A DNA stretch of 64,000 nucleotides from an uncultured Pseudomonadota bacterium (GCA_963843375.1 CAWJKT010000006.1:224001-288000), one strand, 5' to 3'. Positions 29,771 through 47,285 are shown, numbered from the stretch's first letter. Program-made: numbers and translations. The notes: a model not told the origin generated them from the sequence alone.

Positions 29771-30279
29771 AATTCCTCCTAAGGCAAACTTCAAAATTAT
29801 TTTGATTTGGTTAACAGCGGGCTTGAATGAGGCCCAGCCTTTTTTTCCCAAAGGGATAAAGGGAAGGAGGATTTTAAAAATCCATCCTGGCTTTGTCAAG
29901 GAAATAGCCCCAAAACCCCAGAAAACCCATGATCTGCTGGTTGAATAATTTGTTTTGTCGGCGATCTTGAGAATTTGTAGACCAACTTATCCGCCATTCG
30001 GGTTTATAGGCTGAACCAACGCTAAATACGTGCCGCTGGCAACGTTGGAAGTGTTCTAGGAGATCTCGTTGGGTCCGGCAGCGCTGTTTCTGACGTGGAT
30101 CAACTCGTCCGCCACCCTGTATATCGTTGCCTCTAATTTGGAGGGCCATGGGTAAGTTGGCATGAAAAATTGTCGTCAAAGGGTCTTTGGAAGATATATT
30201 CGGCCAAGTCGTCAACGATCCAATTCTAATATCGTTGAGGTCCTCCACGGTGCTTTCCCAGCCGTGGACAAACATTTTT

Positions 30280-30813
30280 TTATTTAACTATTGAGTAACA
30301 ATAAACATCTCGGGGTTCGTTGCTGATGTTGGGATGAATAATCCGCCGGCGCAAAATTCCCTCCCGTTTCATCCCGACCTTTTCCATCACCCTGGCCGAT
30401 CCGGGATTATCGATATCGCAAATCGACCAAATCCTGAAAATACCGCTTTGAGCGAGGCCCCAATCGACGAAAGCCTTGAGCGCTTCCGTCATATAACCCT
30501 TTCTCCAATAGGTCTTGGCAAGGACGTACCCAACGTCCGCCATATACCCGTCGAGCCTGATTTCGAACATACCGAGCAATTGGCCGTCAGGTTTCCGGTC
30601 GATCACATAGGTAAACTTGGTGTTGTTTTCTGGAATTTTCAAAAGACTCTCAAGAAAATTCCTGGTCTCTTCAATATTTTTGTGAGGGTGCCAGGTCAAA
30701 TATTTCACGACTTCCGGGTCTTGGGCATAGCCAAGGAAGATCTTATCTGCATCTTCCATCTTTGGGGGCCGCAAGCGAAGACGGGTGGTTTCAATAATTT
30801 CAGGTGGCTTCAT
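30280..30813 (-). CDS. GNAT (RimJ/RimL-type) acetyltransferase
   Basis: IETTRLRLRP, GYVLAKTYWRKGYMTEA, NPGSARVMEKVGM. Confidence 0.92.
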   Translation of the reverse strand: MKPPEIIETTRLRLRPPKMEDADKIFLGYAQDPEVVKYLTWHPHKNIEETRNFLESLLKIPENNTKFTYVIDRKPDGQLLGMFEIRLDGYMADVGYVLAKTYWRKGYMTEALKAFVDWGLAQSGIFRIWSICDIDNPGSARVMEKVGMKREGILRRRIIHPNISNEPRDVYCYSIVK

Positions 30814-30896
30814 ATGGCACTTTCCACAAAATCAACATAGGGTCCCCGGTTATTTAAGGTTGTCCACGACGGATCCCCGTAGTGAACAAGTACGGT

Positions 30897-31061
30897 TTAA
30901 GGTTTATAGACGAGTGTGGCTTTGATGTACATGGCGATGGCGCCGACAATCCAGCCCGCGAAAAATATAGCGACGGGCTTAGTTTGTTCCATACCACCCT
31001 TGAGCCAAAATAGGCCGAGAACGATGGCCACCGCGATCCCCCAACTAACGAATGGATTTAT
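30897..31061 (-). CDS. Small 54-aa two-TM membrane protein missed by the ORF track (ATA at the start position)
   Basis: AGGAGG RBS, then ATA-AAT-CCA...: (M)NPFVSWGIAVAIVLGLFWLKGGMEQTKPVAIFFAGWIVGAIAMYIKATLVYKP*. Confidence 0.6.
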   Translation of the reverse strand: MNPFVSWGIAVAIVLGLFWLKGGMEQTKPVAIFFAGWIVGAIAMYIKATLVYKP

Positions 31062-31220
31062 GATGTACCCTCCTAAAAAATTGTTTTTTTATCGTCCAAT
31101 CCGGGTCCCAATCGTGGACAACCTTTTAAAGACAATCAAACCTCTTTCCGGGACAAAGGAACCATTCCGGCCCATTGCCCAACCTTTCGCTTTTAAAAAG
31201 GAAATGAAAACCGTTTCAAG

Positions 31221-31252
31221 AAAAAAAGCCCGGGCTTTGAGGCCCAGGCTTT
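31221..31252 (-). terminator. Rho-independent terminator after the 811-aa lipoprotein
   Basis: AAAGCCTGGGCC/GCCCGGGCTTTTTTT on the minus strand. Confidence 0.75.
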
Positions 31253-31273
31253 CGAAATCCCGTTAATTATTAA

Positions 31274-33709
31274 TTAAAAAGTACAGCTATTGCTGACCGT
31301 TACACTAATACCGGATACATTGCTGTAAGTGCCGCTGGAGGTTGCCGATGCCCCGCTCAGCACTTCCTGCTCGGTAAAGTTGCCCTGGGAACAACTGGTG
31401 GCACTGGGGTTGTCGTAAACGGCCCAACCGTCCCCGGCAATATTCCCCGGATTGTAATTCTGCAGGGCGCTGACGATGGCATTAAAACCATAGCCGCTGC
31501 CGCCATTACCGTTGTCGTTGATAATGACCAGTTCAGTATTTTCACCCGGAGCGGCTTCGACGGAAAAGCTTCCGCCGGAACCCGACGCTCCATTGCTTAA
31601 CGCTTCAAAATTGCCGTTCTGGTCATAGGTCGCCACAAAAACATTTCCGGGGGCCGCGCTCCAGTTCACCGTACCGCTGAGCGTGATCCCTTGGTAAGTA
31701 TTGGCGGTGTTAAAAGTGATACCTACGTTGTTGACGACGCCCACCGTATAGGGACCCATGATGGTGACCGGATCCCCGATACAAGGTTCCTGACCGTTAT
31801 CGCAATTATTACCGTTGGAGGAGTACCAAGCCTGGAACCAATATTGGGTGATTGTGGAGGGAAGGCTGTTGTCGATCATGTCATACCGGCCGCCATTCAC
31901 GGTCACGCTATTTCCCGAGTTGAGGTAGGAAACACAGTTGGAATCGGTGTAAACCGCCCAATCGATCTGGTCCGAATTGCTGACACCCCCCGGCGTATAG
32001 TCGGCATAGCCCCCTATCCCCGTAAAGGTACAAGGCTCCGACCCATAAGGGAATGGCATGTTCAAGCTTACGCCGCCGGATAGGGTGATGCTTTTTCCAC
32101 TCCCCAAACTGGAAAAACAATATCCCGCGGTGGCGGAGCCTCCGGCGGAGGCGAAACCGTAAAACTGATAATAATCGCCTACGTGAGGATTGTTGTTAAA
32201 GGGGGAGTCGCCGATGGGATACCCCACCCCGCTGGCCCCGTAAATGATCCCGACATCATAGCTGGTGGCCGTGGTGTCGGTGATGACCACGGAGTTGGTT
32301 ACGCTTTGGGCGTAAACCGAATTATATTCGTTCCCGTTAAAACCAGCGGCGACCACCCAAACCAACTGGTGGGTGCTGTTGACAGGGTACGTGGTCGTAT
32401 TTATGTTGACGCCCAAGGTCACGGGGTCGCCATAGGAATTAATACCGTCATTAAGGTTTATCGGCTGGTTGTTTGGATTCCCGACCGAGCAGGAAACCGG
32501 CACGGAATTGATATAGGTGACCGGATCGCTTGTGGTGGGCGTGGCCGAAGTGCTGGCGTTGCCTCCCACGTCATAGAAAGCCACCAAGTCAAAAGAGGGA
32601 ATATTGCCGTTGGAATTAAGGAGGGACACGCTGAATTTACCCGGATTACTGGGGACGGTCGATGAGGTAATCAGGGTTCCATAGTTGGTTCCCGACTCGT
32701 AAGCAAGGACGTGTATCCGGTTCGTACTGCTGACCGCATAACCATCGCTGAGGTTGTCGGTGAAGGTCACACCCCCCCCAACGCCTTGCGCGACGCTGCT
32801 GTCCCCGAAATTGATATTGCCCAAATTATAGGTACCGGCGGTAAAAGTGGACCCCTGGGCCGGAATGCCGCCCTGCGTATTGGAATTTGAGCCGTTCCAG
32901 TTGACATCCGTATAGGGCTCTCCAGGGAATGGACCCGCCTGGTCCACCAACCCGAGGTTTCCGGTCCTGCCGTTAAAGTCGTAATTGGCCAGGATGTAGT
33001 AGGTACCCGGGGAAGCCAGCGTCACGCTGAAGGAACCGCCGTTAGAGGTCACCGTCGTGGCCGCCGCGATGCTCACGCCGCTATTGCCGGCGATGTAGCT
33101 GCTGTTGTTATAGACCTCAATCCCAATCGCATCGGTGGAGTTCACTCCCGGGCTTGAGGCGAAACTGCCGGTGTAGGAGACACTGCCGCTTAATATCACT
33201 CCCGTGATCGTGGCAGTTACGGTGGCAGTTGGAGTCCCAGTGGGAGTCTTGGTCAGGGTGTACTGGCTAGTCGGGGTGGGGGTACCCGTTTGGGTGGGTG
33301 TGCCGGAATTAGTCGGCGTACTCGTAATCGTATAGGTCGCTGTGATGGTAGGAGTATTGGTAATCGTGGGGGTTGGAGTCGTGGTGGCGCTGTTGGTGGG
33401 AGTTCCGGAATTAGTAGGAGTGGCACTATTGGTCGGCGAGTTGGTAATCGTGTAGGTATCCGTCGTGGTGGCGGTGTTGCTGGGAGTGCTGGTAGGGGTC
33501 ACCGTGGCGGTGTTGGTCGGGGTCTGGGAGAAGGTCGGTGTACAAGTGTGTCCCGAACCGTCCGTACAGACGGTGTTGGTAACTGTGAAGGTAAAGGTGT
33601 TGGTGGGAGCGGCAGGGCTGGAAGGGCTGCTGCTTTTTGAGGGACATCCGATAGTTAAAAAAACAACTCCAATTAAAAGTGAAAATATTCCTATGATGCG
33701 AAGTTTCAT
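31274..33709 (-). CDS. Large secreted/lipoprotein with Thr-Pro repeats and beta-rich extracellular domains
   Basis: Lipobox-like LTIGC, TPTNT/TPT repeats, Asn/Gly/Ser/Tyr-rich. Confidence 0.8.
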   Translation of the reverse strand: MKLRIIGIFSLLIGVVFLTIGCPSKSSSPSSPAAPTNTFTFTVTNTVCTDGSGHTCTPTFSQTPTNTATVTPTSTPSNTATTTDTYTITNSPTNSATPTNSGTPTNSATTTPTPTITNTPTITATYTITSTPTNSGTPTQTGTPTPTSQYTLTKTPTGTPTATVTATITGVILSGSVSYTGSFASSPGVNSTDAIGIEVYNNSSYIAGNSGVSIAAATTVTSNGGSFSVTLASPGTYYILANYDFNGRTGNLGLVDQAGPFPGEPYTDVNWNGSNSNTQGGIPAQGSTFTAGTYNLGNINFGDSSVAQGVGGGVTFTDNLSDGYAVSSTNRIHVLAYESGTNYGTLITSSTVPSNPGKFSVSLLNSNGNIPSFDLVAFYDVGGNASTSATPTTSDPVTYINSVPVSCSVGNPNNQPINLNDGINSYGDPVTLGVNINTTTYPVNSTHQLVWVVAAGFNGNEYNSVYAQSVTNSVVITDTTATSYDVGIIYGASGVGYPIGDSPFNNNPHVGDYYQFYGFASAGGSATAGYCFSSLGSGKSITLSGGVSLNMPFPYGSEPCTFTGIGGYADYTPGGVSNSDQIDWAVYTDSNCVSYLNSGNSVTVNGGRYDMIDNSLPSTITQYWFQAWYSSNGNNCDNGQEPCIGDPVTIMGPYTVGVVNNVGITFNTANTYQGITLSGTVNWSAAPGNVFVATYDQNGNFEALSNGASGSGGSFSVEAAPGENTELVIINDNGNGGSGYGFNAIVSALQNYNPGNIAGDGWAVYDNPSATSCSQGNFTEQEVLSGASATSSGTYSNVSGISVTVSNSCTF

Positions 33710-33919
33710 TGAAATAACCTCAAATCGATATGGGGCGTTGGGAGGGGTGGGAGAAACTGTTTAACTAAAAAATTTTAGTTTGACCGTGAGCCGTAGGCAA
33801 CATAATAAATAACAGATAAAATTACACTTTTAATGTTAAATTTAAGTAAAAAAGGTTTTTAGTTGTCCCATGCACCTCCCCGTCGTGGATCGCGAAATCG
33901 ATTCTCTATCCCAATCCCC

Positions 33920-36619
33920 TTAAGGGGTGATTAAAAATTTGCCCCGCTGCAATACCATTTGGCCGTTCTGAATCACGTAATAGTAAATTCCAGGTGAGAC
34001 GGTCGATCCTTGCTGGTTCTTCGCCCCGACCCATTCGGTGGGGTCTCCCGACTGGCTGATACTGTTGACCAGTTCGCCCGAAAGGGTGTAAATGAAAACC
34101 TGCGCACCTGCGGGCAGGCAGCTGATTCTCAGAGAATGGTTCAAGGCCCAATGGGGGCTGTAAGGGTCAGGCCAGACATGAATGGCACAGGGAGGCGTCG
34201 AAGTTGGTGTAACAGAAGAAGTGGTGGTAAACGTGGCGGTCAAGGTGATGGTAGCCGTTATGGTCGGGCTGTTGGTAGGAGTGTTTGTGGGGGTCTGCGT
34301 CACCGTGGGGGTAACAGTATTCGTTGGTGACAGAGTCGACGGGGGAGTGACAGTTGGCGTGGAGGTAGCTAAGGCAAATTTGGTGACGAAAGCGTCGCCG
34401 AAGCCCCCCGTATCCCCGATAACGGTTTGATAGGCACCGGCCGTGATTGGGAAATTGGCAGAAGTCGTCATGCCGGTAATGTAAAGCCCTCCCGAACCAT
34501 CCATGGCCAAGCCTTGCCCATATTCAACGGAGCTTCCCCCTAAATAAGTGGAATAAAGAAGATTCGTGCCGGTCGGGTTCAATTCAAAGAGAAACGCATC
34601 CTGCGAACCCCCCAGGGCGGTTTGGAAAGCCCCCGGGGTGGTTGGGAAATTGGGGGAGGCGGTCCATCCCGAAACGAAGGCGTCTCCACTGGAATCCACC
34701 GCCAAGCCATACGCATATTCCGCGACGGTACCGCCAAGATAAGTGGAATATGCCAGGGAGGCTCCACCAGCGTTCAATTTAGTCACGACCGCATTTTCAC
34801 CCTTTTGAACCGTTTGATAGGCTCCGGAAGTTATGGGGTAGTTCGTCGCGTCGGTGGAGCCGCCCACATAGGCATTACCGGCTGAGTCCACCGTGATCAC
34901 TCCCCCGTAATTGTTGCCGTTCCCCGCAAGGTAAGTGGAGTACACCAACCCGCTCCCCGAAGGATTCAACTCGGTTACCATGATATCGGAGGCCCCGGTG
35001 ACGTAATTGGGTTGGAACGAGCCTGGGGTGGTGGGAAAACCGCCCAGGGTGTAGCCCACGACATAGGCATCATCAGCCGGGTCCAGGGCGATCCCGAACC
35101 CATCGGAGACATCGGTCCCGTTCAGGTAAGTGGAATAGACCAAGCCGGTTCCGTTGGGGTTCACCTTGGTGATGAAGAGGCCCGAGAGGGGTGGTGCGAC
35201 GGTTTCATAAGCCCCGGATGTAGTTGGAAAGTTTGGCGAGCTGACATCGCCTTCCACATAAGCGTTGCCCCCGGCGTCAACCGCGATGCCGGTCCCTTCA
35301 TCGTTCTGGGATCCTCCCAGGTAAGAGGAATAGACCAGGGCCGAACCCGTAGGATTGAGTTTGGTGACAAAAGCGTCATAATCCCCTCCCACGGCCGACT
35401 GGAAGGCACCCGGAGTGGTCGGGTAATTGGTGGTACCGGTGAAACCGGTGACATAGGCGTTCCCGCCTCCGTCCAAGGCGATGGCGGAGCCCTCGTTGAC
35501 GGGTCCGCCCAAGGTTGTACCGGGGTCCGCGATGGTCCCCCCTAAAAAGGTGGAATAGACCAGAGCGGTCCCGGTGGGGTTCAACTTCGTCACGAACGCG
35601 TTGAAACCAGCGATCGTATTCTGGAAAGCGCCAGCCGTGATCGGGAAATTGGTGGAGTCGGAATAACCCACGATATATGCATTCCCCCCGGCATCCACCG
35701 CGATGCCCGTGCCCTCTTCCTGGCGGATTCCCCCCAGAAATGTGGAATAGGCCAGCACAGGATCGATGACCAGAGGCTGGGTGCGATCGTAAGTTCCCAC
35801 CCGGAACCCGATGATGCCCTTTCCCACAAGGGCGTATCTTCCATTCACGATCATCCTCCGGCCAGCCAGATCCTGATAGGCCACCGGCGCCTTGAAGACC
35901 GCCGCCCCCTGACCCCTTCCTAAATATAGGTCCCCCTTACCGTCCAGATGAATCCCCCGGGGACCGCTATAGGCCAGCCGGATCTGCCCCGGGTCGGCGC
36001 CCGGTTTTAAGACAAAGTCATACTCCAGCCGGCCTTGCCGCCCGTAATAGACCATGTCGATGCCGGTATAAACGTCCTTGGCCACGACACGACTATATTG
36101 GGGGATGTTCGAATGCCATTTTTTGGGGTCGTTACCGAGGAAATAGTTGCTGTGGCCGAGGAGTTTTTGATCCCCTTCCCAGGAAGCCCGGGGATCAGCT
36201 CCTTTGAGCCCCAGCCAAACCGTTTGGTGAGAACGGGGCGAAGGCTTGGTACTTGGAAGTTTCGGCGAATACCATACATGGGTCTCTTTCCTTCCCAGCC
36301 CCTCGGGCCCTACCCATGACAAGAAGGCTCCTGTTTCGGTCAGAAAAAGAGTGTAACCCGATCCCCGAGCCAGGAACTTGACCTTTGAGTCGGCCTGCCC
36401 CTCGTTGGGTTCGAAAGCCAAGGGCAGAAGGCCGAAGGTGTTTTTAAGGTCAATCAGGGATGGATCATGAGGAAAAAATCGGGAAGGCACGCCGTGGAAT
36501 ATCCTCTGGAAGAAGTTCCGGACAGGAACCGGCGACCGATAGACGAAAAAACCAATCACCAAGACGAAAAGAAGGGGCCCCATGGCCAAACTGACCGGTC
36601 GAAAAAGACACCACTTCAT
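33920..36619 (-). CDS. SBBP (seven-bladed beta-propeller) repeat surface protein with TP linker and FlgD/CTD-like C-terminus
   Basis: FEPNEGQ N-terminal domain, repeats 'YSTYLGG...G.GIAVD..GNAYV.G.T.S.NFPTT.GAFQ'. Confidence 0.9.
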   Translation of the reverse strand: MKWCLFRPVSLAMGPLLFVLVIGFFVYRSPVPVRNFFQRIFHGVPSRFFPHDPSLIDLKNTFGLLPLAFEPNEGQADSKVKFLARGSGYTLFLTETGAFLSWVGPEGLGRKETHVWYSPKLPSTKPSPRSHQTVWLGLKGADPRASWEGDQKLLGHSNYFLGNDPKKWHSNIPQYSRVVAKDVYTGIDMVYYGRQGRLEYDFVLKPGADPGQIRLAYSGPRGIHLDGKGDLYLGRGQGAAVFKAPVAYQDLAGRRMIVNGRYALVGKGIIGFRVGTYDRTQPLVIDPVLAYSTFLGGIRQEEGTGIAVDAGGNAYIVGYSDSTNFPITAGAFQNTIAGFNAFVTKLNPTGTALVYSTFLGGTIADPGTTLGGPVNEGSAIALDGGGNAYVTGFTGTTNYPTTPGAFQSAVGGDYDAFVTKLNPTGSALVYSSYLGGSQNDEGTGIAVDAGGNAYVEGDVSSPNFPTTSGAYETVAPPLSGLFITKVNPNGTGLVYSTYLNGTDVSDGFGIALDPADDAYVVGYTLGGFPTTPGSFQPNYVTGASDIMVTELNPSGSGLVYSTYLAGNGNNYGGVITVDSAGNAYVGGSTDATNYPITSGAYQTVQKGENAVVTKLNAGGASLAYSTYLGGTVAEYAYGLAVDSSGDAFVSGWTASPNFPTTPGAFQTALGGSQDAFLFELNPTGTNLLYSTYLGGSSVEYGQGLAMDGSGGLYITGMTTSANFPITAGAYQTVIGDTGGFGDAFVTKFALATSTPTVTPPSTLSPTNTVTPTVTQTPTNTPTNSPTITATITLTATFTTTSSVTPTSTPPCAIHVWPDPYSPHWALNHSLRISCLPAGAQVFIYTLSGELVNSISQSGDPTEWVGAKNQQGSTVSPGIYYYVIQNGQMVLQRGKFLITP

Positions 36620-36825
36620 ATGCCCTCCCAATAAAAACCCCCGCGATCAAGCCTTTGGGTCCAGACGAAGAGGGGTCCATAAGTCTTCTAAATACAAAAC
36701 CAATTAATATGGATTTTATCACCAAACCGCAGCCCTCTTGATAAAAGCAGGTCACTTTTTCCGCTTTTTTGGAACAGGTCAGGTTTGAATTTCATGTTGA
36801 ATAGCGTTTTATTTTAATTATTTAG

Positions 36826-37266
36826 TCAGCTCACCTTTTTTCTATTTCGAGGCTTAAACCCATATCTTATTGCCACTTCAAGTACATCAATGTTTATATC
36901 TTTCAGCGTTTTGAACTTAATGCAATATCCGCTCACACTCACCTTGCCGAGTTTTTTTCCGTATGTTCTGGCTAAATATTTCTTATCCTTGATACCAAGT
37001 ATATAGACAGAGATTCCGGTTTTGTTTGCACTGATACCAATTCGATAAAACTCTCTGGTTTTTCCTCCCGCATATTTTATGGTTTGAAACCCATATCCTA
37101 TATTAGGATTAGAAATAATTTTATTCTCGCTGTTTTTACCGCCCAAGAACCATAATTTACACGCTGGCATTACTTGAAGAATGATGCGGTGCAACGCTTG
37201 CATGTCGCTGTGTTTTGGTTCAGGTTGGCTACTAATATACTTTTTGATTTGTTTTTGAACGTTCAT
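36826..37266 (-). CDS. DUF1801-like protein
   Basis: YISSQPEPK...IGYG...ISVYI...CIKFKTLKDINIDVL; noticeably AT-rich. Confidence 0.7.
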   Translation of the reverse strand: MNVQKQIKKYISSQPEPKHSDMQALHRIILQVMPACKLWFLGGKNSENKIISNPNIGYGFQTIKYAGGKTREFYRIGISANKTGISVYILGIKDKKYLARTYGKKLGKVSVSGYCIKFKTLKDINIDVLEVAIRYGFKPRNRKKVS

Positions 37267-37454
37267 ATAAATCCGGGATTCCCCAGATGACTTCTCCCTA
37301 CAACATCGCCGGTTAATTTGTTCCTCATTTAATTCCCCTCCTTCCCCCTGCTTCCTTTACTTGTCCAATCTTGGTCCCCGTCGGACAATTATTCCTGGGA
37401 ATCTCGCCGCCCTCACAACAACTTGTCTGGGGAATGATCAACAAGTTGGCCGCC

Positions 37455-38039
37455 TTAGGCTCCAATAGTACCTGTCTTAACTTTTCCGGCCCGCTTGTAA
37501 TTGGCAAAGATCACTCCGGTTGGCGTTACCATACTCTCGGTTAATGTAAATGCCGCCGGAATCGCGCCACCGTCAAACAACTTTTTTCCTTTACCAAGGG
37601 TCAACGGGCAGATCCTGAGCCAGAGTTCGTCCACTAAATCATTCTTCAGTAGAAGTTGAATGAGCTCACCACTGCCGTGAACTTGAATGTCAGGACCTTT
37701 TGAATTTTTGAGCTTTTTGATATCCGCTGAGCTTTTGATAAAAACTGAGTTTTTCCAATCCGACTTTTTCAGGGTCTTGGACAGGACATACTTTGTCCCT
37801 TCATTGATGCCTGGCCAAAAGTCTGAATGTTTAGGCCAATAGGGGGCCCAACTCTCAAACGTTTTTCTGCCCAAAAGATAATCCGCGGGTTTCGAAAGTT
37901 GTTCCTGGACCTTCTTCCTCCCAACTTCGGTAATATAAGGCGCAATCCAACCGCCATATTTGAAACCGCCTGATTTATCTTGCCCAGCTTGCATAACTCC
38001 ATCTAATGTAATAGCTGATAAGACGATAATTTTTCTCAT
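37455..38039 (-). CDS. Dihydrofolate reductase-like / RibD C-terminal family protein
   Basis: MRKIIV...TLDGVMQ, LLGRKTFE, GSGELIQ, LVDEL...PLTLGKGKKLF. Confidence 0.9.
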   Translation of the reverse strand: MRKIIVLSAITLDGVMQAGQDKSGGFKYGGWIAPYITEVGRKKVQEQLSKPADYLLGRKTFESWAPYWPKHSDFWPGINEGTKYVLSKTLKKSDWKNSVFIKSSADIKKLKNSKGPDIQVHGSGELIQLLLKNDLVDELWLRICPLTLGKGKKLFDGGAIPAAFTLTESMVTPTGVIFANYKRAGKVKTGTIGA

Positions 38040-38247
38040 GTAATCGCCCCCTCCAAAGTTCAATTGTTAAATAAAATTCCAAACACAAACTGCGACATTT
38101 TAATTAATATTCTTTTGTCCACGATGGGTCCTCGTCAATGACAACTTCATTGTTCATTAAGTCTTCACTAACGTGCGAAACGCAAAAACCCGCATAGTGT
38201 GCAAAGGAGCCTTGATCTAAGTCGATAGCATCAATCCCGCCCCATCG

Positions 38248-38868: not shown

Positions 38869-40224
38869 TCATCCCGGCAGGGGCTTGGTGACGAGCGTCG
38901 AGAGATAGTCCCTTAACGCGTCCAATTCCTCCGGTGTGCCCACGATCTGCGGCATATAGGCGTGGTAGGGGGAATCAGGCTTGTCCTCGTGTAGTATTTT
39001 CAAAAGACTTCCGATGGCTTCCTTGTCCCTTCCGGCCAAAAGCTGGTTTATGGGCCGGTAGCCGTCCACGGTGTGGCAGGACATGCATTGGCCCCGGAAC
39101 ATGGCCTCGCCCACCGCCAAATGCGGGTCCCCTCCCTCCCTCACCCAGGAGGAATGGGTCAAAAAGCCGTCGTTGTTGAATTTGTCCACCGACTTCAGGC
39201 GAACCCCGTTGGAGAACATGTGCCCCACGATGATGTAGGGCTTGCGAAGCATTTCCCGCACATATTCGGAGGAGGCGGTGGCGCAGAGCCCCAATAGCAA
39301 TATGGCCATGGCGTGGCCCGGGCGGAAGTCGTTTGGCGAGCGCCAAGCGAAGAAATAAACCACCCCCACCACCGTAACTGAGGTCATCAGGATGACTAGG
39401 ACCATTCGGGTCACCTGGGTGAACATTCCCTTGCCCATGGTGGCGATGCCCAGTTCCAAAAGGCCCCTCTGGGATTCGGGAATCTGGTGGAGGAACCATA
39501 GCAAAAGAAAGGGCATGCTGAAAAAAAGCGGCAGAAGCCATTGGGCGCTCCAATGCACCAGTTCGGCCCGCAAGGCGGCATCCTCATGGCCCATGCGGCT
39601 GTAGGAAACCAATGCCCAAACCCCCGCAAGGGAAAAGCAGACCCCCATGCGGAGAAAGAGGCTGGGCCAATAGGTGGGGTTAAAGAAAGCCTCCCAAAAG
39701 CGGCTGGACTCCTGCCCCGTGCCGGCCACCGAAAGCCATGCGGCCCCAGGAGTCAGCTTGAAAGTAAGGATGCCGTTGATGATGATAAGAGTGAAAAGAG
39801 AGGAAACCGCGTAAAGAAGCCCCACTTTCAAGTGCAGTTCGTCGGAAATGCGGCCCCAGGTGTAGTAATAGACCGCCACGGTGCTGAGCTCCACGATGAA
39901 GAAAACCCACTCAATGGCCCAACCGAAGACGAAGTTGTGGATGAGGGTGCTAGTGGCCTCGGGCGCGGCCAGGCCGATGGCGAACCAGATGCCCACCCCC
40001 GAAACCGTACCGAAAACGCCCGTCACGAGCAGGAAGAAGCGCGAGTGTGCCTGGATGATCTTAAGCCAGTCCAACCGGCCGTCCTTGAGGGCCTTGCGTT
40101 CGGCGAAATAAAGGTAGATGCCCCCGCCCACGGCGAACTGGGAAATCATCACGTGGAAGATGGCGATCATGCCGATCACCCATCCGCTGCCGGTGAAGGG
40201 GACGACCCAGAAGGGATAGTTCAT
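38869..40224 (-). CDS. Cytochrome bd oxidase subunit I-like membrane protein with C-terminal c-type heme
   Basis: FHVMISQFAVGGG, WAIEWVFF, EYVREMLRKPY, CMSCH. Confidence 0.75.
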   Translation of the reverse strand: MNYPFWVVPFTGSGWVIGMIAIFHVMISQFAVGGGIYLYFAERKALKDGRLDWLKIIQAHSRFFLLVTGVFGTVSGVGIWFAIGLAAPEATSTLIHNFVFGWAIEWVFFIVELSTVAVYYYTWGRISDELHLKVGLLYAVSSLFTLIIINGILTFKLTPGAAWLSVAGTGQESSRFWEAFFNPTYWPSLFLRMGVCFSLAGVWALVSYSRMGHEDAALRAELVHWSAQWLLPLFFSMPFLLLWFLHQIPESQRGLLELGIATMGKGMFTQVTRMVLVILMTSVTVVGVVYFFAWRSPNDFRPGHAMAILLLGLCATASSEYVREMLRKPYIIVGHMFSNGVRLKSVDKFNNDGFLTHSSWVREGGDPHLAVGEAMFRGQCMSCHTVDGYRPINQLLAGRDKEAIGSLLKILHEDKPDSPYHAYMPQIVGTPEELDALRDYLSTLVTKPLPG

Positions 40225-40241
40225 TTTTTAAAATCTCCTTT

Positions 40242-41312
40242 TCAAACGCCCAGGTAGCCCCAGACGGTCAACCCCGCCAGGAGCCCCAGGACCAGAAGGC
40301 CGAAATAGGTGGCGTTTTTCCCCCGTCGGCCCGAATTGGAAACGGGGTCATAGAGGGGGACGAGGAACCACAACACCAATCCTAGGGTGAAAAGCACGAG
40401 CCCCAGGCTTTCCCCCATTTCTCCCGGAAAAAGCTTCCCGAAAACCTTGAGCACCTGAAAGGAACTCATGAAATACCATTCGGGATGGATTCCAGGGGGG
40501 GCGGACTTAAGTAAATCAGCCTGGTCACCCAGTTCCCAGGGAAAGAGGGCGGCGAAAAGGGTAAGCAGGTTGAGGGTGATGAGCCACATGGCCAGATCCT
40601 GCATCATGAAGTTGGGAAAAAAGGGGATGCTTTTGCGCTTGGACGGCTGGACCGATACCTCGGACGGCGGCAGGGCGTTGCCGTGCTTCTGCACCAGCCA
40701 GAGGTGAAAGGCCAGGAGGGGAATGAAAATGGCGGGCATGACCACCACGTGCAGGGCGAAAAAACGCTGGACCGTGGTGGCCGTCACGTCCGAACCGCCC
40801 CGGACGATGCTCGAAATCTGGTGACCGATTAGGGGGAAATGGGTGGGAATATCCAGCCCCACCTTGGTGGCGAAAAGGGCTAGCTCGTTCATGGGCAAAA
40901 GATAGCCGCTGAAGCCCCAGACCATGGTGAGGATGAGGAGGAAAATACCGCTCCACCAACCGAATTCCCGGGGACTGCGGTAGGCCTTCATGAAAAAGAC
41001 CGAGAACATGTGGACGAAAATTGCCAGCACCATCAGATTGGCGGCCCAGGAATGAGTGGAGCGGATGAGCCAGCCGAAATTAATCTCGTAACTGATTTGC
41101 CGCACCGACTCATAGGCCGAGGGGCCAGGCTGGTAATAGATGAGCAAAAGCACGCCCGTAACCCCCTGGACGAGGAAGAGGAAAAGCGAGATGCCGCCCC
41201 AGTAATACCAGAAGGAGTGCTTGTGCTGGGGCACGGTCTTGTGGCTGGCGAATTCGATGATCTCGCTTAGGCCGAGGCGCTCGTCGACCCAGTTGTAGAT
41301 TTTCTTGTTCAT
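40242..41312 (-). CDS. Cytochrome b of a bc/b6f-type complex (fused subunit IV)
   Basis: GWLIRSTHSWAAN, HMFSVF, RFFALH, HPEWYF. Confidence 0.93.
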   Translation of the reverse strand: MNKKIYNWVDERLGLSEIIEFASHKTVPQHKHSFWYYWGGISLFLFLVQGVTGVLLLIYYQPGPSAYESVRQISYEINFGWLIRSTHSWAANLMVLAIFVHMFSVFFMKAYRSPREFGWWSGIFLLILTMVWGFSGYLLPMNELALFATKVGLDIPTHFPLIGHQISSIVRGGSDVTATTVQRFFALHVVVMPAIFIPLLAFHLWLVQKHGNALPPSEVSVQPSKRKSIPFFPNFMMQDLAMWLITLNLLTLFAALFPWELGDQADLLKSAPPGIHPEWYFMSSFQVLKVFGKLFPGEMGESLGLVLFTLGLVLWFLVPLYDPVSNSGRRGKNATYFGLLVLGLLAGLTVWGYLGV

Positions 41313-41322
41313 TCTCTTTTTC

Positions 41323-41778
41323 CTAAGTTCTGGATACGGCCACGCCGCCGGGTACCACTTTGGCCACGTAAAGGGTTAAGGGCCGGGGCGGGGGCCCGCT
41401 GATGTTTTTTCCTGTTTGGGCGTCGTATTCGCCGCCGTGGCAATTGCAATGGATGACGTTGCGGACCGGCAAATATTCCACCGTGCAGCCCAGGTGGGTA
41501 CAGACCGCGTCCATGGCCACCCAATTTCCGTCCTCATGGTGGATGAGGAGCGAGGGCCGGGAACCGAAGCTGAACATCAGGACACTCCCTTTTGGGAGGT
41601 TTTCCGCGTCCTTCAAAGTGACCTCGGTGACTGTGGACATGCCCGCTTCCTTCTCGGCGGGCGAGGTGAGATAGCGGTAGACCGGATAGCCGATGGCTGC
41701 CCCGTAGCAGGCCCCCACGCCTAGGACCGCCACCTTCACGAACTCGCGGCGGGTGATGGGCATCTTCGGATCAGTCAT
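41323..41778 (-). CDS. Rieske 2Fe-2S protein with Tat-like signal
   Basis: TRREFV, CTHLGC, CNCHGGEY, GPPPRPL. Confidence 0.95.
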   Translation of the reverse strand: MTDPKMPITRREFVKVAVLGVGACYGAAIGYPVYRYLTSPAEKEAGMSTVTEVTLKDAENLPKGSVLMFSFGSRPSLLIHHEDGNWVAMDAVCTHLGCTVEYLPVRNVIHCNCHGGEYDAQTGKNISGPPPRPLTLYVAKVVPGGVAVSRT

Positions 41779-42883
41779 GACTCCCTCCTTCGAGGATGGG
41801 TTTTGAACGCATCAGCACGGAGATCAGCCAGGCTAGGGCCCCGATACCGAGGACGAAAACCCAAAGGAAGGTCACCACCACCAACCAGTTGGTGACGACA
41901 GGCTGGCTCCAAACGTCAAAGCCCTTGTGGGCCAGGGTCACATCACGGATGCCGTCCCGGAGGATAACCCAATTGGCCACAGCCAAAAGAGCCATCAGCG
42001 CGGCCACATAACCGGCGGCAGGACCCCGGGGTTTTTTCACCACGGTCCAAAGCCCAAAAAGCAGAATCACCAAAGCCAATGGGTAATAGGTAAAGGAAAC
42101 CATGCTGTAAAAGCCATTGGCGGAAAGTCCTGAACTCACAAAATCCGGCTGGTTGGAAATGATGAGGTAATAGGTGACGGCCTGTAGGAGTATGCCCAAG
42201 ACGGCCATTTTCCCCCCCAGGCCCGACAGGTAAAGCTTGAGAGGTTCCTGGACGCTCTTGCGGCCCGCGATCCAGACCATCCAGAAACCGGACACCCAAA
42301 GGGCGCCGCAAAGCATGAAGAGCCAGCGGGGGTTCAGGGTAGGGTCGTAGGGTGGTATTTGATTTCCCAAGGGAGCGGCGGAATACATGTCGCGCCAAAC
42401 CTCCGGCTTGAGCATGAGTGCCATGTTGGTGGATAAAATGCGGGAGATGATCCCGGCCAAAAACAGAGAAGCAAATCCCTTGAACCATGGCTTTTTCCCT
42501 GCGGCCACCCCATCCGAAAAACCGTAGAGCAGCCAATAACATGCCATCAGCAGGAGGATCACAGAAAACCAGAAGAAACCGATCAGCACATTGGCGGTAT
42601 AGAGAGCCGGACCGTAGAGCACCTGGGCAAAGAGGAGCGGCGGGATACCCAGGTTGATGACGTAGGTCATGACAATGGGAAGTCTTTTAGCTAAGGCTTT
42701 TGCCGCCTCCTGCCGCTGGGCGTTGGAGGAACCGAGGAGATTGAGCAGGATGGCTGTCAGGAGTCCACCCAGGAACATCTTCACCGCAATGAAGTGGAGG
42801 CTGAGGGTAAGGACGTCCAACCCCTTGAATAGCCAGACAGGCGCGGGCAGAGGGATGGGGTCGGTCCAGGGAAAAAGGTTCAT
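41771..42883 (-). CDS. Polytopic membrane protein, possibly a second bd-oxidase-like subunit
   Basis: ~9 TMs; DPIPLPAP...LHFIAV...NLGIPPLLFAQVLYG; first gene of the respiratory operon. Confidence 0.65.
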   Translation of the reverse strand: MNLFPWTDPIPLPAPVWLFKGLDVLTLSLHFIAVKMFLGGLLTAILLNLLGSSNAQRQEAAKALAKRLPIVMTYVINLGIPPLLFAQVLYGPALYTANVLIGFFWFSVILLLMACYWLLYGFSDGVAAGKKPWFKGFASLFLAGIISRILSTNMALMLKPEVWRDMYSAAPLGNQIPPYDPTLNPRWLFMLCGALWVSGFWMVWIAGRKSVQEPLKLYLSGLGGKMAVLGILLQAVTYYLIISNQPDFVSSGLSANGFYSMVSFTYYPLALVILLFGLWTVVKKPRGPAAGYVAALMALLAVANWVILRDGIRDVTLAHKGFDVWSQPVVTNWLVVVTFLWVFVLGIGALAWLISVLMRSKPILEGGSHD

Positions 42884-42952
42884 GGAATAAGGCGCTCCAT
42901 TTTTTGACGAAAACCCTGCAAGCTTTCCCCCCGATTGCGCGGAATGCACCAA

Positions 42953-42995
42953 AGGTTATTTCATGTGTACTTTTTGTTCTATGATCAAAATCATA
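42953..42995 (-). promoter_or_regulatory. FNR/CRP-like box with a candidate -10 element
   Basis: TATGAT-CAAA-ATCATA palindrome (42980-42995); TAACCT at 42958-42953 on the minus strand. Confidence 0.5.
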
Positions 42996-43167
42996 TTGGA
43001 CAGATATTCACCCTGCCCATGGGCGAAAGCAAGAGGCAAGACGGATTTAGATAGCCGGATTAAAAATAAATCTTGTTGATATTTTAGTAGTGTGGTTGTC
43101 CACGACGGGTCCCCGCCGTGGACAACTGATTCATTTTAAGATGGTTGATATTGGCTGGGTTTTATTG

Positions 43168-43731
43168 TCAGCCATCGATGACTTTTAAGCTTTTCAACTG
43201 GCGCAGTATCCGCATGTCCTCGGCCATATCCCCGATTTTTTCGGCCCATCGGCGAAGGTACTTTTTATCGAGGAACGGTCCTTGCCGGGCCACAATGGCT
43301 TCGACGTCCGCCAAATCTTTTGTCCTTCCAGGAATCAATTTTAAAAGGATTAAATCTTCCGGCGAAGGCATGGGAACCATCCGCCCAAAAAGCTTTAACG
43401 AAACCTTTCGGCTCAAGGCGGAACGCTCCAATTCAGTGGAGGCGATAATCACGTCCACAGGGACCTTCCGAAAAGCGATGGTAAACGCCCCTCTGGTCTT
43501 TGCGCCATAAATGGCTTTTTGAGGATTGACTTGAAATTTTTTGCCTGCTTTTTTAAGGAAGGCGGGCAAACCCGCCTTCTCGATGAATAAAATAAGGTCG
43601 ATATCCTGGGTCATTCGCGGCTGGCCCGAGGCCAAAACCGCCAATCCACCGATCAACAGATAATCCGCTTTGGTTTCTTTGAGAAGGGAAATCAGCTCGT
43701 GGAAGGCCGACTCAATGGGATTGGTGGACAT
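43168..43731 (-). CDS. Nucleotidyltransferase (DUF6036/AbiEii-like), putative toxin
   Basis: YLLIGGLAV...PRMTQDIDL...PEDLILLKL...KDLADV. Confidence 0.8.
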   Translation of the reverse strand: MSTNPIESAFHELISLLKETKADYLLIGGLAVLASGQPRMTQDIDLILFIEKAGLPAFLKKAGKKFQVNPQKAIYGAKTRGAFTIAFRKVPVDVIIASTELERSALSRKVSLKLFGRMVPMPSPEDLILLKLIPGRTKDLADVEAIVARQGPFLDKKYLRRWAEKIGDMAEDMRILRQLKSLKVIDG

Positions 43732-43903
43732 AAAAGGAAAGCGCCATGGGCTTATCGTGTCGCAAATTGGGTTTTTTCGCGTTGAAGGCGGCCCGAATCA
43801 GGTTTTCCCCCATGCGAATACTTTCCTTCAACGAAAGCTTTCGCAGGGAAGACCGGTTTTCTTTTTCGCTGTATTTCTTGAATCTTTTGGGGTTCTTAAC
43901 CAT
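43712..43903 (-). CDS. Small basic protein, putative antitoxin partner of the nucleotidyltransferase
   Basis: Short ORF overlapping the NTase start. Confidence 0.5.
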   Translation of the reverse strand: MVKNPKRFKKYSEKENRSSLRKLSLKESIRMGENLIRAAFNAKKPNLRHDKPMALSFYVHQSH

Positions 43904-44090
43904 GGTTGAATTCATTGTAGGGGGCATTCACGGCAGGTTCAACGTGTATTGGTCCGTCTTGAAATTTCCATCCCTGTGGTTTAAGCCTTTCTAGGGTAAA
44001 AATTGGACCCACTATCATTTTCGCCGTCCAATACACTGTCCACGACGGGTCCCCGTCGTGGACAGGTTATATTTTTAATCTTGATCCAAT

Positions 44091-46194
44091 TTACTTTTGG
44101 CGCATGATCTCGATGGCGCAGACCTTGGCGTTATGGACCGAGGAAACGAATCGTAGATGGATCATCCCATCCGCGTCCGGGCTGGATGTCCGGGAAGCTT
44201 TTATCGACAGCCTTGTCGAAGGCCCCCGCCTCCTTGAGGATATCGAAATGGGCGAGAACCTTTTTCCCGTTGATGAGAATATCAAATACCCTATCGCCTT
44301 CTTTCTTCACGTTGGTCTCGGCGAACCTCAAATGAACCTGGTACTTACCCGGTAACACCGGAAGGGAATAACTGAAATCCCTCCCGTTGCGTTCGAATTG
44401 ATATAGTTCCTGCGTCCGGGTTCCAGCGATGGAATCCCAACAACGGGCCACATCCCCATCGGAATAGCCAATATCCGACGACCAGTACAAACCATCCTTG
44501 TCCCGGAATTCTTCCCAGCCGGTTCGGATGCGCCAATGGTCCGTGGGGGCCAGGGGTATGGGATTGGGCTGCGGCGAGAGGGACACTTGTTCTGGGACGA
44601 CCCCGGGTAGCATTTCGAACCAGTCGAAGTCCGCGTAATTCTCGGATTCCTTGCCGTTGGCCGTGGCATAGAGGCCGACCACTGTTCCGGTAAAGCCGCC
44701 AGCCTTCTCCCGGGAAAGATCGGCGGACGGGCAAGCCGCGAGGTTGTTCCAGGTCTTACCGTCGTTGGACCAGGCGAATTGGTACCGGTCTTCGGTGCCG
44801 GAAATCTCCAGTTGGACTTTGCCCGATTTCATCGGTTCTTGGGCAATCATATATTCCCGGTTTTTAATCCGGTTCCGTACGAATAGCCGGGTTTCCCCGC
44901 CGAACCGCCCCAAGCCAACCTCATAATGGTTATCCTCGTTGGCCCGCACACAAAGACCCGCCTCCTCGCCGTCTTGCAGTGGATTAAATTCCATCTCGGT
45001 ACGGGCGCTAAAACGGAACGAGGTCTGGCGCCGGCCCACGAAAGCGGGATCTTCAAAAATGGTGTTCAGGCTGTCCTTGGTCGCCCGGATTCGGAGATAT
45101 CCTTTCCGTTCCGTCAGGGAGAAATTTTCCGGGTCAAAATTTCGGATATGCAGCCACTCAGGGCCCAACTGGGAGCCGGTAAAAAGGGTCCTCGGTTGGG
45201 GAGCCTCCACGGCGAACAGCTTTAACTTTGGTGCTTCCATTTCCAGGGCAACATGGTGGTTTTTACCCGCCACTGGCCAACCATCCAGTGTCCATTGGAC
45301 AGGCGTGAGAAAGGTTTCCCGGCCCAGCACCGACATGCCGCCCTGGGGCCGGGTTCCGAGGAAAACTAGCCACCAGGTTCCGTCAGGAGCGTCAATTAAG
45401 TCGGCGTGTCCCGCGCATTGGATGGGGCTTTGGGGATCGTCGCGTTGGGTGAGGATGGGATTATGGGGGCAGGACTCAAAAGGGCCCCAAGGGCTGCTGC
45501 TCCGGGCCGCGACTTCTTGATGATAACTTCCGGTTCCACCCGTGGCGCTGATGAGATAGTACATCCCTTTGATCTTGTACATGTGCGGGCCCTCATTCCA
45601 TTCGCCCTGGTATTCCCAAGCCTTCTTGAAGGGTGTTTTCAGCTTCAGGCTGGACGGGTCTAATTCGGCCTGCGCGATGCCGTTCCCATTGTCGGCCCCG
45701 GCATGGTCGTAATAGATCTTCCCGTCGTCGTCAAAGAACATGGAACCGTCGATCCCGTAATCGTTCAGCCAGACCGGCTCCGACCAGGGGCCCGCCGGGT
45801 CCTTGGCGGTGACGATGAAATTTCCCCCTCCGCTGACGTTGTCGCAGGTCAGGTAAAAAGTCCCCTTCCAGTAGCGAAGGGTTGGCGCGTATAGGCCGCC
45901 CCGGTCCGACGCCCCTTGGAGGGGCAACTGGCTGGGGCGGTTCAGGGCATTTCCGATGAATTCCCAATGGACTAGGTCACGGCTGTGGTAGATAGGAAGG
46001 CCGGGGAAATACTCGAAGGTGGAATTGGTGAGGTAAAAGTCCTCCCCTACCCGGCAGATGCTGGGATCGGGATGGAAACCGGTCAGGATGGGATTCTTGA
46101 AGGTTTTTAACATGGTCTTGGCGTCCGCCTTATCCACCATCCCCGAAAACCACAGGGAGATGGCCATGATTGGACCCAAAAATCTAAAGCGCAT
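44091..46194 (-). CDS. Secreted GH43 beta-xylosidase/arabinofuranosidase with C-terminal malectin domain (frameshift near 44170)
   Basis: NPILTGFHPDPSICRVGEDFY, LYAPTLRY, EGPH, GHADL; malectin 'LRFAE...RVFDILING'; last strands in ORF 44091-44285. Confidence 0.92.
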
Positions 46195-46358
46195 GAGGCC
46201 TCCTTTGGGACTGGGTCGTTTGATTATAGACCAGGGATAAGGTGGTTGAGAAAAAACGATTTGGGAACAGGAGTTGGATTGGACAGCGGTTATTAATTGT
46301 CCACGATGGGTCCCCGTCGCGGACAAAGCCCGAACCTCGATTTTCCCATTCGGCCCGG

Positions 46359-46754
46359 CTAATTATTCACGAGAAGATAAACCGCCATTACGAGGCCAAT
46401 GAGACCCAGTCCCAAGGCAATTCCGATTCCCAAATAGGATGGTTTGATCTCGGGGGTTTCTCCCAGTTTAAGAAAGGAAACAAAGCGCACATAGTCGGCA
46501 ACGACCAACCCTTGAACCAGGACCCCCGTTAAAACCAAAAGTGTTCCAAACCACATAGACCATCCCGAGTGTCCGGGCAAGGAGTTATCAACCCGCCCTT
46601 GAATCATGCGCAGGAACAAGCTGAAACGGGCAACGACGAAACCGAAACCCATCAGGGCCAAACCGGTCCTGATCCAAGCCAGGAAGGTTCGTTCCTTCGC
46701 CCAAAAAATTCGAGGATCGACATTTTTAAACTGGTTTTTGGTGGATGTTTTCAT
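46359..46754 (-). CDS. DUF202/YidH family membrane protein
   Basis: AKERTFLAWIRTGLALMGFGFVVARF. Confidence 0.92.
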   Translation of the reverse strand: MKTSTKNQFKNVDPRIFWAKERTFLAWIRTGLALMGFGFVVARFSLFLRMIQGRVDNSLPGHSGWSMWFGTLLVLTGVLVQGLVVADYVRFVSFLKLGETPEIKPSYLGIGIALGLGLIGLVMAVYLLVNN

Positions 46755-47285
46755 GTTGGATATTTTCGCCTGTCGATAATTAAAAAGTGCCCTGTATTAA
46801 CCCCAAACATTTAAGATCGTCTGTGCCTTCGTCCAATCCGGATCCCCGCCGTGGGCAAAATCAGCCGCCTTATTTGTTTTTTTGTCTTCGTCGATCTTGA
46901 GGATTTCCCTGACCTTTTCCATGAAATCCGGTTTCAACCCCTGGTAATGTCCCGAGACGTCGATATTCCCGGTACCCGGGAACTCCAATCCATCAAGACA
47001 ATAATTGGAAAAACGTTAAAAGCCCATCTTTTTTTAGGCAGGATTCGTTCCTCTTTAGCTCCAACTCTCCCTTTTCGGTTTATTTTCGGGTTATTTAAAA
47101 TCTTCAACTCCATTTTACTCCTCAAAATCCTTTCTGAGCCCTACCCAAAAACTGGTCAAAATAAAGTCAAGGTGCCTTTAAAAAAAATAAAAAGAGGCCG
47201 GTTAAGCATCGCCCCCGGGAAGATCAAAAGGCTAGTCGGTTTTAACCGGTTTTTGCCGCCCTTGCCTGCCTCTAACTGCCACAAC

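Follow-up and report, generated by a model that had tools for sequence, protein, structure and literature searches.

Integron-like gene-cassette arrays bounded by a 28-bp site, and a short serine recombinase linked to that site, in an uncultured bacterial family

In a 64,000-nt stretch of DNA from an uncultured bacterium (GCA_963843375.1, CAWJKT010000006.1:224001-288000; hereafter the window, meaning this whole stretch), the interval between rpsP and a tRNA-Thr gene holds ten minus-strand gene cassettes punctuated by copies of a 28-bp palindromic site, which raises the question of what these sites do and which enzyme, if any, acts on them. A preliminary description had proposed eleven co-oriented sites with 11-bp arms and a 6-bp spacer (30242..46857), delimiting an integron-like or pdif-like cassette array served in trans by a tyrosine recombinase. 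Our analysis, which is computational throughout, compares the window with the rest of its genome (G000, in which it is G000:C6:224001-288000), with a genome of the same genus (G054) and with further relatives. The answer we favour, and hold to be reasonably likely from these comparisons, is that the sites bound integron-like cassette arrays and are recombined, as 13-2-13 sites, by a short serine recombinase.

The site has the consensus TGTCCACGACGGGTCCCCGTCGTGGACA, which with up to three mismatches occurs at five window positions against 0.00 expected from 100 shuffles; a looser pattern gives seven positions against 0 expected. Using a weight matrix built from the genome's own copies and a threshold of 12 bits, we scanned all 4.05 Mb of G000 and found about 84 sites, compared with 2 in a block-shuffled genome. 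Nine of the eleven sites first described exceed this threshold, all on the plus strand (30861, 31093, 33864, 38116, 38721, 43097, 44037, 46298 and 46830), and the 64-kb window contains no further site above 12 bits beyond these nine. The other two, at 30242 and 37362, bear indels and score below the threshold; we read them as decayed sites, because the cassette homology of relatives starts or ends there. The co-orientation of all eleven stands. Confinement of the motif to the rpsP-tRNA-Thr interval, as first suggested, holds within the window but not across the genome, with its about 84 sites.

The geometry of the site differs from that first proposed. In a logo of 276 sites, conservation extends over all 28 positions save 7-10, in the left arm. 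Reverse-complementing positions 1-13 gives positions 16-28 exactly, and only the central TC is asymmetric (T at 0.97, C at 0.96), so that the logo gives a 13-2-13 arrangement in place of 11-6-11. Of 279 sites, 222 retain the centre GGTCCC. Two arms of 13 bp around a 2-bp asymmetric centre are the layout of serine-recombinase crossover sites.

Palindromes of this kind could also act as folded elements. REP elements are short GC-rich palindromes that occur after genes in many copies and are associated with RAYT transposases. The sites resemble them in being short, GC-rich and many-copy and in lying after genes, at a median of 43 nt from the stop codon, and consensus copies form strong hairpins (z about -6.5). 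One could therefore suppose a REP- or terminator-like mark, or another protein-bound mark at gene 3′ ends, with exchange by homologous recombination and with a neighbouring serine recombinase that is unrelated and has a similar site. We consider this quite unlikely. In 114 of the 279 sites (about 41%), 8 or fewer of 11 arm positions are complementary, and no compensating changes are present in the poorly palindromic arms of this set. Sites with an AATCC-type arm fold no better than shuffles, and no T-run follows the hairpin in the gene sense. Because of these poor palindromes without compensation, the unfolded AATCC arms and the missing T-run, the evidence argues for a double-stranded protein-binding site rather than a terminator, a REP hairpin or an attC-like folded strand. 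In addition, all 28 positions, including the asymmetric centre, are conserved across 16 of the 17 genera of the family, and no Y1 or RAYT protein exceeds the cut-off in G000 (80% complete), where a search for RAYT (PF01797) returned one match of 20.8 bits against a cut-off of 23. The attC core GTTRRRY is absent from the logo of this 28-bp site, in agreement with the earlier statement that it matches neither attC nor chromosomal dif.

The placement of sites across the genome bears on the same question. They occur on 13 of the 32 contigs of G000, and of the 77 that score 19 bits or more, 68 stand no more than 6 kb from another; placed at random in 500 trials, sites gave 15.0 on average and 30 at most. 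Adjacent pairs are co-oriented in 54 of 59 cases. Most sites fall in about eight co-oriented arrays, with clusters on C6 (7.5-63 kb, plus the window), C9 (93-134 kb and 243-271 kb), C10 and C18; G054 has about a dozen arrays. Scatter through the genome in both orientations had been named as the pattern that would speak for a REP- or terminator-like element, and the matrix scan instead found sites clustered and co-oriented in accessory arrays, not spread behind housekeeping genes. By a crude open reading frame (ORF) caller, both neighbouring genes lie on the strand opposite the site as written for 63 of the 77, and the next start codon follows the site at a median of 121 nt (quartiles 49-336 nt).

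A dyad-symmetric, 28-bp, intergenic element at that median distance upstream of the next gene might be taken for the operator of a dimeric transcription factor that co-regulates accessory genes. We regard this as highly improbable: the next start lies at a very variable distance while the preceding stop is close by, conservation is no lower in the centre than in the arms, and an operator leaves unaccounted for both the identity breakpoints inside the sites and their fixed place behind a recombinase gene, described below. The genes themselves are of accessory types. Pfam annotation of 93 genes in the other arrays of G000 includes toxin-antitoxin pairs (YafQ/RelB, several PIN/VapB, MazF, BrnT, TacA-GNAT), five GNATs, small oxidoreductases and regulators; no recombinase inside an array was found among them. 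The window array likewise has no recombinase in or beside it, in line with the preliminary description, which had one acting in trans.

How widely is the site distributed? Among 99 scanned genomes of the candidate phylum FCPU426, the motif is present in 27 of 30 genomes of the window's family besides G000, and pattern matches per family genome range from 0 to about 165; outside the family, the phylum yields three single matches only. When one genome per bacterial and archaeal species was scanned, almost all matches were in FCPU426-titled records, the rest being single ones in a few other, mostly high-GC genomes, which we read as chance. In metagenomes, the motif was found in at least 153 stretches. 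Genomes with few copies hold small co-oriented clusters, not one conserved site, and one family genome, G058 (97% complete), has no copy within three mismatches.

We then asked whether the window array is an insertion relative to other genomes, locating trmD and ruvA across the family and aligning 13 syntenic loci to the window. In G054, homology to the window stops at 29914 and picks up again at 47391, and only 121 bp separate the rpsP flank from that of tRNA-Thr; the whole 17.5 kb is therefore absent from this same-genus genome. None of the 13 syntenic loci of relatives carries a site above 12 bits, and G064, G066 and G068 have other inserts of 9-16 kb at the same place. Reciprocally, arrays of G054 stand at a locus that is uninterrupted in G000.

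The position beside a tRNA gene suggests a further layer. The insert abuts the 3′ end of tRNA-Thr, and window positions 47234-47396 resemble DNA found just 3′ of tRNA-Thr or tRNA-Phe in other genomes. A conserved segment of 90-160 bp follows tRNA-Thr in the window and in G066 and G067, and tRNA-Phe in G000 (C15:35395-35480) and G073; in G000, a 28-bp site lies 190-410 bp beyond each copy of this segment. Possibly it marks the conserved terminus of a tRNA-targeting, array-bearing island. Because the insert abuts the tRNA-Thr 3′ end and terminates in a segment of the type that follows tRNA genes, the window array may ride on, or have grown inside, such an island. A search at the ends of the 17.5-kb insert for a direct repeat of the tRNA-Thr 3′ end, or for another att-like repeat, gave nothing significant.

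Does each cassette have a history of its own? When the array was searched against DNA of the whole family, each cassette gave separate matches. Comparing 359 inter-site units from G000, fetched arrays and metagenome loci, we found a 100% identical cassette on metagenome contigs L231 and L244 with unrelated flanks, and another in two arrays of G054 (C2 and C4). Between genomes, cassettes in unrelated flanks are shared by G047:C6 and G054:C2 (99.6% identical), by G048:C21 and G054:C4 (96.4%) and by G000:C9 and G044:C60 (96.3%), although housekeeping DNA of those genera is only about 66-75% identical. Several of the contigs with near-identical cassettes are 79 kb to 2 Mb long. To judge from these comparisons, cassettes move singly, across arrays and across genera. 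The crossing of genera by 96-100% identical cassettes as single units stands against a REP- or terminator-like mark and, like the clustering and the dispensable hairpin, sets these sites, which delimit units mobile between genomes, apart from REP elements.

At a contig end in G048 (L018, G048:C26:133000-144686), part of an array is present as an inverted duplication, which includes a RibD_C cassette and a 100% identical 901-bp cassette. This duplication may be either a real inversion between sites or an assembly artefact.

Where the exchanged units end is informative about the crossover. For cassettes at least 95% identical with unrelated outer flanks, we compared the mean number of mismatches in each site arm with a null expectation. 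At the site on the gene-start side (n=9 independent ends), the inner left arm differs by 0.56 mismatches against a null of 3.00 (P=0.0001), whereas the outer right arm, at 1.44 against 1.63, is at the null (P=0.41, n=9). At the other end, the inner right arm shows 0.71 mismatches against 1.62 (P=0.04, n=7) and the outer left arm 2.29 against 3.00 (P=0.17, n=7). In alignments with flanks, identity ends within the sites: a cassette carries its inner arm along but not the outer one. Since inner arms match and outer arms are at the null, the crossover falls between the two arms, and the breakpoints place it only somewhere in that span. With the absence of the array from G054, these in-site breaks bear out the earlier proposal of an integron-like mobile array with a site of its own. 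Site-to-site joints in assembled Logan contigs were considered as evidence of excision and rejected; the shorter side measured 28-30 letters, which is the repeat itself, and the joints are alignment artefacts. Neither circles nor cut ends nor gain or loss between strains were observed.

A search for resolvase domains pointed to a candidate enzyme. Genes of about 280 aa with such a domain lie near sites in G000, G054, G048 and G067, and with the G054 protein as query we found full-length copies in five of the 31 family genomes (G000, G054, G052, G048 and G067), as well as C-terminal fragments, three in G048 and others in G070 and G072. The copy in G000 (C9:137160-138005) encodes 281 aa; that of G054 lies at L181:828-1664. 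Behind 11 of the 12 copies or C-terminal fragments with downstream DNA lies a full site, 8-34 nt from the stop codon in genome copies and about 38-48 nt from the end of the protein match on two metagenome contigs. These two short contigs, in each of which the gene end is followed by a site, came from a tblastn search of metagenome DNA around sites. Gene and site invariably share a strand, the left arm being the one nearer the gene. Nine genome copies have a full site, and behind eight of these stand more sites above 12 bits in the same orientation. A recombinase gene is thus combined with a primary site and an array in G054, G048, G052, G067 and others. The gene's locus is not syntenic between G000 and G054, and within the phylum the short recombinase occurs only in the motif-bearing family.

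Five of the sites behind the recombinase have a special left arm, TGTTCCTTTTG, and are preceded by a palindrome of 13-15 bp. This palindrome (TCAGTAnTACTGA, often GTCAGTAnTACTGAC) stands between the recombinase stop codon and the primary site, for example at L377:6837-6850 and L371:7907-7920, and could be an accessory or regulatory site, or a terminator. On contig C6 of G000, the array at 48654 retains a relic of the last ~40 nt of a recombinase gene together with a primary-type site.

The short protein carries the Pfam domains Resolvase (E 4.2e-22) and Recombinase, its catalytic domain matches PDB entries 3bvp (TP901-1 integrase) and 3guv (a resolvase-family protein), and the YVRVSS catalytic motif is conserved in all five full-length copies. 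Each of the five ends just before the Cys4 zinc ribbon of paralogues of 510-515 aa. The short form is 48-55% identical to full-length relatives of 510-570 aa in the family, which have no site nearby. In a collection of 5.8 billion proteins, it is represented by 19 clusters at 90% identity, all of 275-283 aa and at least 74% identical to one another; the zinc-ribbon family PF13408 is absent from all 19 clusters. The next relatives are at most 61% identical and many carry the zinc-ribbon family, so that the short form stands as a discrete clade.

In the scheme we prefer, a cassette would comprise the right half of one site, a gene or small operon with its own upstream region, and the left half of the next site. 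The enzyme would be a large serine recombinase without zinc ribbon and coiled coil, with catalytic and 'recombinase' DNA-binding domains. Bound as a dimer to the two 13-bp halves of the site, the enzyme would cleave at the central dinucleotide, and the non-palindromic TC would let only directly oriented sites religate. Excision would give a cassette circle with one site, which could re-insert at any other site. The primary site behind the recombinase would play the part of attI, with gene, primary site and array corresponding to intI, attI and cassettes, and the window array, which has no recombinase, would be served in trans by the enzyme encoded at G000:C9:137160-138005. That this protein catalyses the reaction, cuts at this position and is active today we infer from sequence and position.

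The domain structure is consistent with such a role. The zinc ribbon and coiled coil of large serine recombinases bind outer att DNA and confine these enzymes to recombination of attP with attB. Loss of both regions would fit a short site and recombination between like sites. The sole recombinase physically tied to the site is a serine recombinase, which departs from the tyrosine recombinase of the preliminary description.

Tyrosine recombinases nevertheless deserve weighing, since a site of 28 bp with inverted arms also has the geometry of dif, as the passages on such sites in PMC12907356 describe. A cassette array served in trans by a tyrosine recombinase on an 11-6-11 site, either an Xer-like protein or a 370-aa integrase, is in our estimate unlikely. 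G000 has 14 Phage_integrase (PF00589) matches, with ORFs called for 11; one is Xer-like (C10:182366-183469), with synteny conserved across the family, and each of the three solitary weak sites (24-27 bits) has a 370-aa integrase gene no more than 4 kb away. These weak sites, however, belong to toxin-antitoxin cassettes, and arms of 13 bp leave a centre of 2 bp. By tblastn, 11 of the 14 tyrosine recombinases of G000 were used as queries, and none has a homologue in 350 kb of non-redundant metagenome DNA around sites; nor does a tyrosine recombinase adjoin the arrays of G047 or G048.

The 370-aa proteins look like island integrases. G000 has six paralogues (58-66% identical); they adjoin tRNA genes, and their surroundings are of island type, with an excisionase-like HTH_17 gene, a TraG-like coupling protein, Fic and IS21. 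They are probably ordinary integrative-element integrases, and we rejected them as the cassette recombinase on this context and because their copy number does not track site number: G047 has one copy and 74 pattern hits, G068 three copies and 4 hits. One of the six lies in the window at 2038-3246, a 371-aa tyrosine integrase (SAM_5 plus Phage_integrase) convergent with tRNA-Asp (3169-3246). IS21-type elements are present in at least three copies in G000 (C8:87789-90100, C11:52356-54667 and C8:175902-178213), each with a 513-aa IstA-like protein and a 257-aa IstB; two of them stand beside 370-aa integrases. Three tyrosine recombinase genes in a row, a recombinase-in-trio, occur at G000:C8:95063-98359 and likewise in G048:C5, G067:C10 and G070:C16.

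The motif was also considered as the chromosomal dif and rejected: in six genomes, the flanks of the Xer-like gene show an AT-rich conserved block and no dif-like palindrome. The motif is not the family's dif, because G058 has tyrosine recombinases but no copy of it within three mismatches. A search of five genomes (G000, G054, G070, G067 and G048) for the integron integrase TIGR02249 gave no match above the cut-off, the best reaching 73.9 against 265 bits.

Several observations weigh against a short serine recombinase as the enzyme of these arrays. Only five of the 31 family genomes have the full-length gene and a further two have fragments of it; at E<=1e-10 it was not found in the site-rich genomes G047 (90% complete), G044 (89%) and G066 (98%). 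Most arrays have no resident enzyme, and the link between recombinase and site is one of position only. In G000 itself, the gene is followed by a half site that retains the left arm and centre, with no full site nearer than 3 kb. The primary-type left arm TGTTCCTT occurs at G000:C9:267172 and C18:52965 with no recombinase remnant to its left, which is a misfit because a simple model keeps that arm beside the recombinase gene. Nor does the scheme account for the start of an array at a new place, as the empty loci (that of the window in G054, and that of the G054 array in G000) carry no site.

The evidence for exchange has limits as well. Homologous recombination between 28-bp repeats would leave identical breakpoints, so the breakpoints alone are no proof of a site-specific enzyme; that short-repeat crossovers would also fall inside the sites counts in favour of the REP- or terminator-like reading. 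The breakpoint statistics stem from 7 and 9 ends of cassettes, some of them on short contigs from metagenomes or bins, where mis-binning is possible. Finally, a GH43 homologue in G051:C4 (87% identical) has no site in the 14 kb fetched, and a CMD homologue in G066:C70 (85% identical) none in 10 kb; not every such gene is therefore a cassette.

How does a cassette system of this kind compare with integrons? Like integrons, in particular sedentary chromosomal integrons and CALINs, the integrase-less attC clusters (IntegronFinder, PMC4889954), it consists of co-oriented, mostly one-gene cassettes joined by a recombination site after the gene. The content is alike, with toxin-antitoxin pairs, GNATs and small unknown genes, and so is the order of recombinase gene, primary site with one special arm, and array; many arrays lack a recombinase, and cassettes are common to distant hosts. 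The differences are as marked. In place of the tyrosine integrase IntI, which is marked by an extra domain of its own, the linked enzyme here is a serine recombinase, and in place of attC, which varies in sequence and is used as a folded single strand, the site is a near-invariant, apparently double-stranded 28-bp element. An attC site is an imperfect hairpin of 55-141 nt with RYYYAAC/GTTRRRY core sites, recognised as a folded single strand. Cassette genes here point towards the recombinase gene, and there is therefore no shared Pc-type promoter; arrays are also numerous within a genome, as in G000 and G054. The system thus fails two defining features of integrons, IntI and attC.

Serine recombinases offer parallels too. 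In Hin/hix, with a 12-2-12 site, and in site I of gamma-delta res, a dyad site has a 2-bp centre that sets polarity, and the recombinase gene lies beside the site. Such small serine invertases and resolvases have a C-terminal helix-turn-helix, use enhancers or accessory sites, and act on two or three sites per element. Our system is like them in its dyad site, its 2-bp centre, the gene beside the site and the proposed recombination of like sites, but here roughly 50-150 sites per genome punctuate unrelated genes. With large serine recombinases (TP901-1, phiC31, Bxb1 and Ccr of SCCmec), the short form shares the N-terminal serine catalytic domain and the Pfam 'Recombinase' domain; it differs in lacking the zinc ribbon (PF13408) and coiled coil, in that identical 28-bp sites would recombine, and in its output, a cassette array rather than one prophage or island.

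The pdif modules of Acinetobacter, also invoked at the outset, use XerC-XerD (PMC12907356, PMC7399989). Shared with them are a 28-bp site with inverted arms, small gene modules, the lack of a module recombinase and sharing between replicons. However, pdif sites copy the host dif and alternate as C/D and D/C, as PMC12907356 has it, whereas 54 of 59 adjacent pairs here are direct repeats without likeness to chromosomal dif, the centre is 2 bp rather than 6, and the linked enzyme is a serine recombinase; the pdif-like label does not fit.

A broader interpretation, which we advance tentatively, is that this is an active, independently evolved counterpart of the integron, in which a mini recombinase without directionality domains moves any site-bounded DNA and maintains a family-wide cassette pool in an uncultured soil phylum. 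To our knowledge, all known integrons use one tyrosine integrase family and folded attC sites, so that cassette capture would, if this holds, have evolved at least twice. In the open-access full-text papers covered by our searches, we found no serine-recombinase cassette array and no work on mobile elements of FCPU426. The motif and the short recombinase would then be a new marker for mobile gene pools in uncultured soil bacteria, and the compact pair of 281 aa and 28 bp, apparently free of the attP/attB restriction, could be of interest for genome engineering. The origin of cassettes is, as far as we know, unsolved for integrons. Because the site is short and some cassette genes have site-less versions, 85-87% identical, in plain chromosomal surroundings, the system may also reveal how cassettes first arise from resident genes, and it would be a simple one in which to test excision, insertion and cassette origin.

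We close with the features of the window array itself, read along the window, with all sites on the plus strand and all cassettes on the minus strand; Pfam agrees with the families listed in the preliminary description. Upstream of the insert, rimM appears as two overlapping ORFs, a PRC-barrel part (28648-28872) and an N-terminal part (28865-29143), pointing to a frameshift or a fault in the assembly. Relative to the window, contigs from three sequencing runs have a 1-base deletion at 29182. The left end of the insert (29915..30241, no strand assigned), absent from G054, where homology stops at 29914, lies outside the first recognisable site, and no homologue of it was found in 30 family genomes. 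That first site (30242..30270), identified by reading the sequence, is decayed, with a 7-nt centre and a score below 12 bits. Cassette 1 (30280..30813) encodes a GNAT acetyltransferase (Acetyltransf_3, E 1.7e-32). Its copy in G048:C21 is 74% identical and has sites at both ends, in an otherwise unrelated array with unrelated neighbours; the homology stops at the window 30242 site, and in G048 an intact site adjoins there.

A site of 39.6 bits by the weight matrix, the source of all site scores given here, follows (30861..30888), and then cassette 2 (30897..31031), an ORF for a 44-aa hydrophobic protein. The 232-bp unit of cassette 2 has copies of 70-86% identity in at least 16 family genomes, with sites on both sides in G054:C1. 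This unit, for a membrane protein of two helices, is the most widely conserved piece of the array, and in G068 it occurs apart from that genome's sole site cluster. The next site (31093..31120, 32.1 bits) has an AATCC-type left arm and no hairpin fold. Cassette 3 (31274..33709) encodes an 811-aa repeat protein with no Pfam match.

A weak site of 12.5 bits (33864..33891) precedes cassette 4 (33920..37266), which by Pfam holds a DUF7948/SBBP protein (33920-36631) and a DUF1801-like gene (36826-37266). An SBBP unit of G054:C2, 88% identical, begins at a site matching that at 33864. Homology breaks within this cassette at 36742 and 36786, no site relic was seen in the sequence between the SBBP and DUF1801-like units, and the two are evidently of separate ancestry. 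The decayed site that follows (37362..37389), again found by reading the sequence, has a 2-nt deletion in its right arm and is below threshold; homologues of cassette 5 (37455..38063; Pfam RibD_C, DHFR-like) begin inside it, at window position 37383. Copies of this cassette, 77-80% identical, stand in other arrays at G000:C6:15577, in G048:C26 (two) and in G054:C2.

Sites of 23.1 bits (38116..38143) and 40.2 bits (38721..38748) flank cassette 6 (38248..38688), which encodes a CMD-family protein by Pfam. Cassette 7 (38869..42952) has four genes, annotated with Pfam as cytochrome bd-I-like, cytochrome b, Rieske and a 393-aa protein, and homologues of 68-78% identity lie elsewhere in relatives. 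After a site of 48.6 bits (43097..43124), cassette 8 (43168..43927) carries a nucleotidyltransferase (Pfam DUF6036) and a 71-aa partner, a toxin-antitoxin-like pair. In its copy in G066:C44 (82% identical), the match takes in both flanking sites up to their outer edges.

The following site (44037..44064, 50.7 bits) is a perfect consensus. Cassette 9 (44131..46326) encodes a GH43 xylosidase with GH43_C2 and malectin domains by Pfam; its called TTG start overlaps the next site (46298..46325, 44.7 bits), and the true start is probably further in. Cassette 10 (46359..46754), a DUF202 membrane protein by Pfam, has homologues of 75-83% identity in seven genomes. The last site (46830..46857, 28.4 bits), the first on the tRNA side, has an AATCC-type left arm. 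Comparison with relatives gives the right end of the insert as 46858..47396 (no strand assigned), where it meets the 3′ end of tRNA-Thr (CGT; 47397..47472, minus strand). An Rfam scan of the array returned only tRNA, plus sub-threshold chance matches. Within the right end, window positions 46864-46958 are 95-100% identical to two adjacent pieces at G000:C5:19627-19782 and so form a small repeat.

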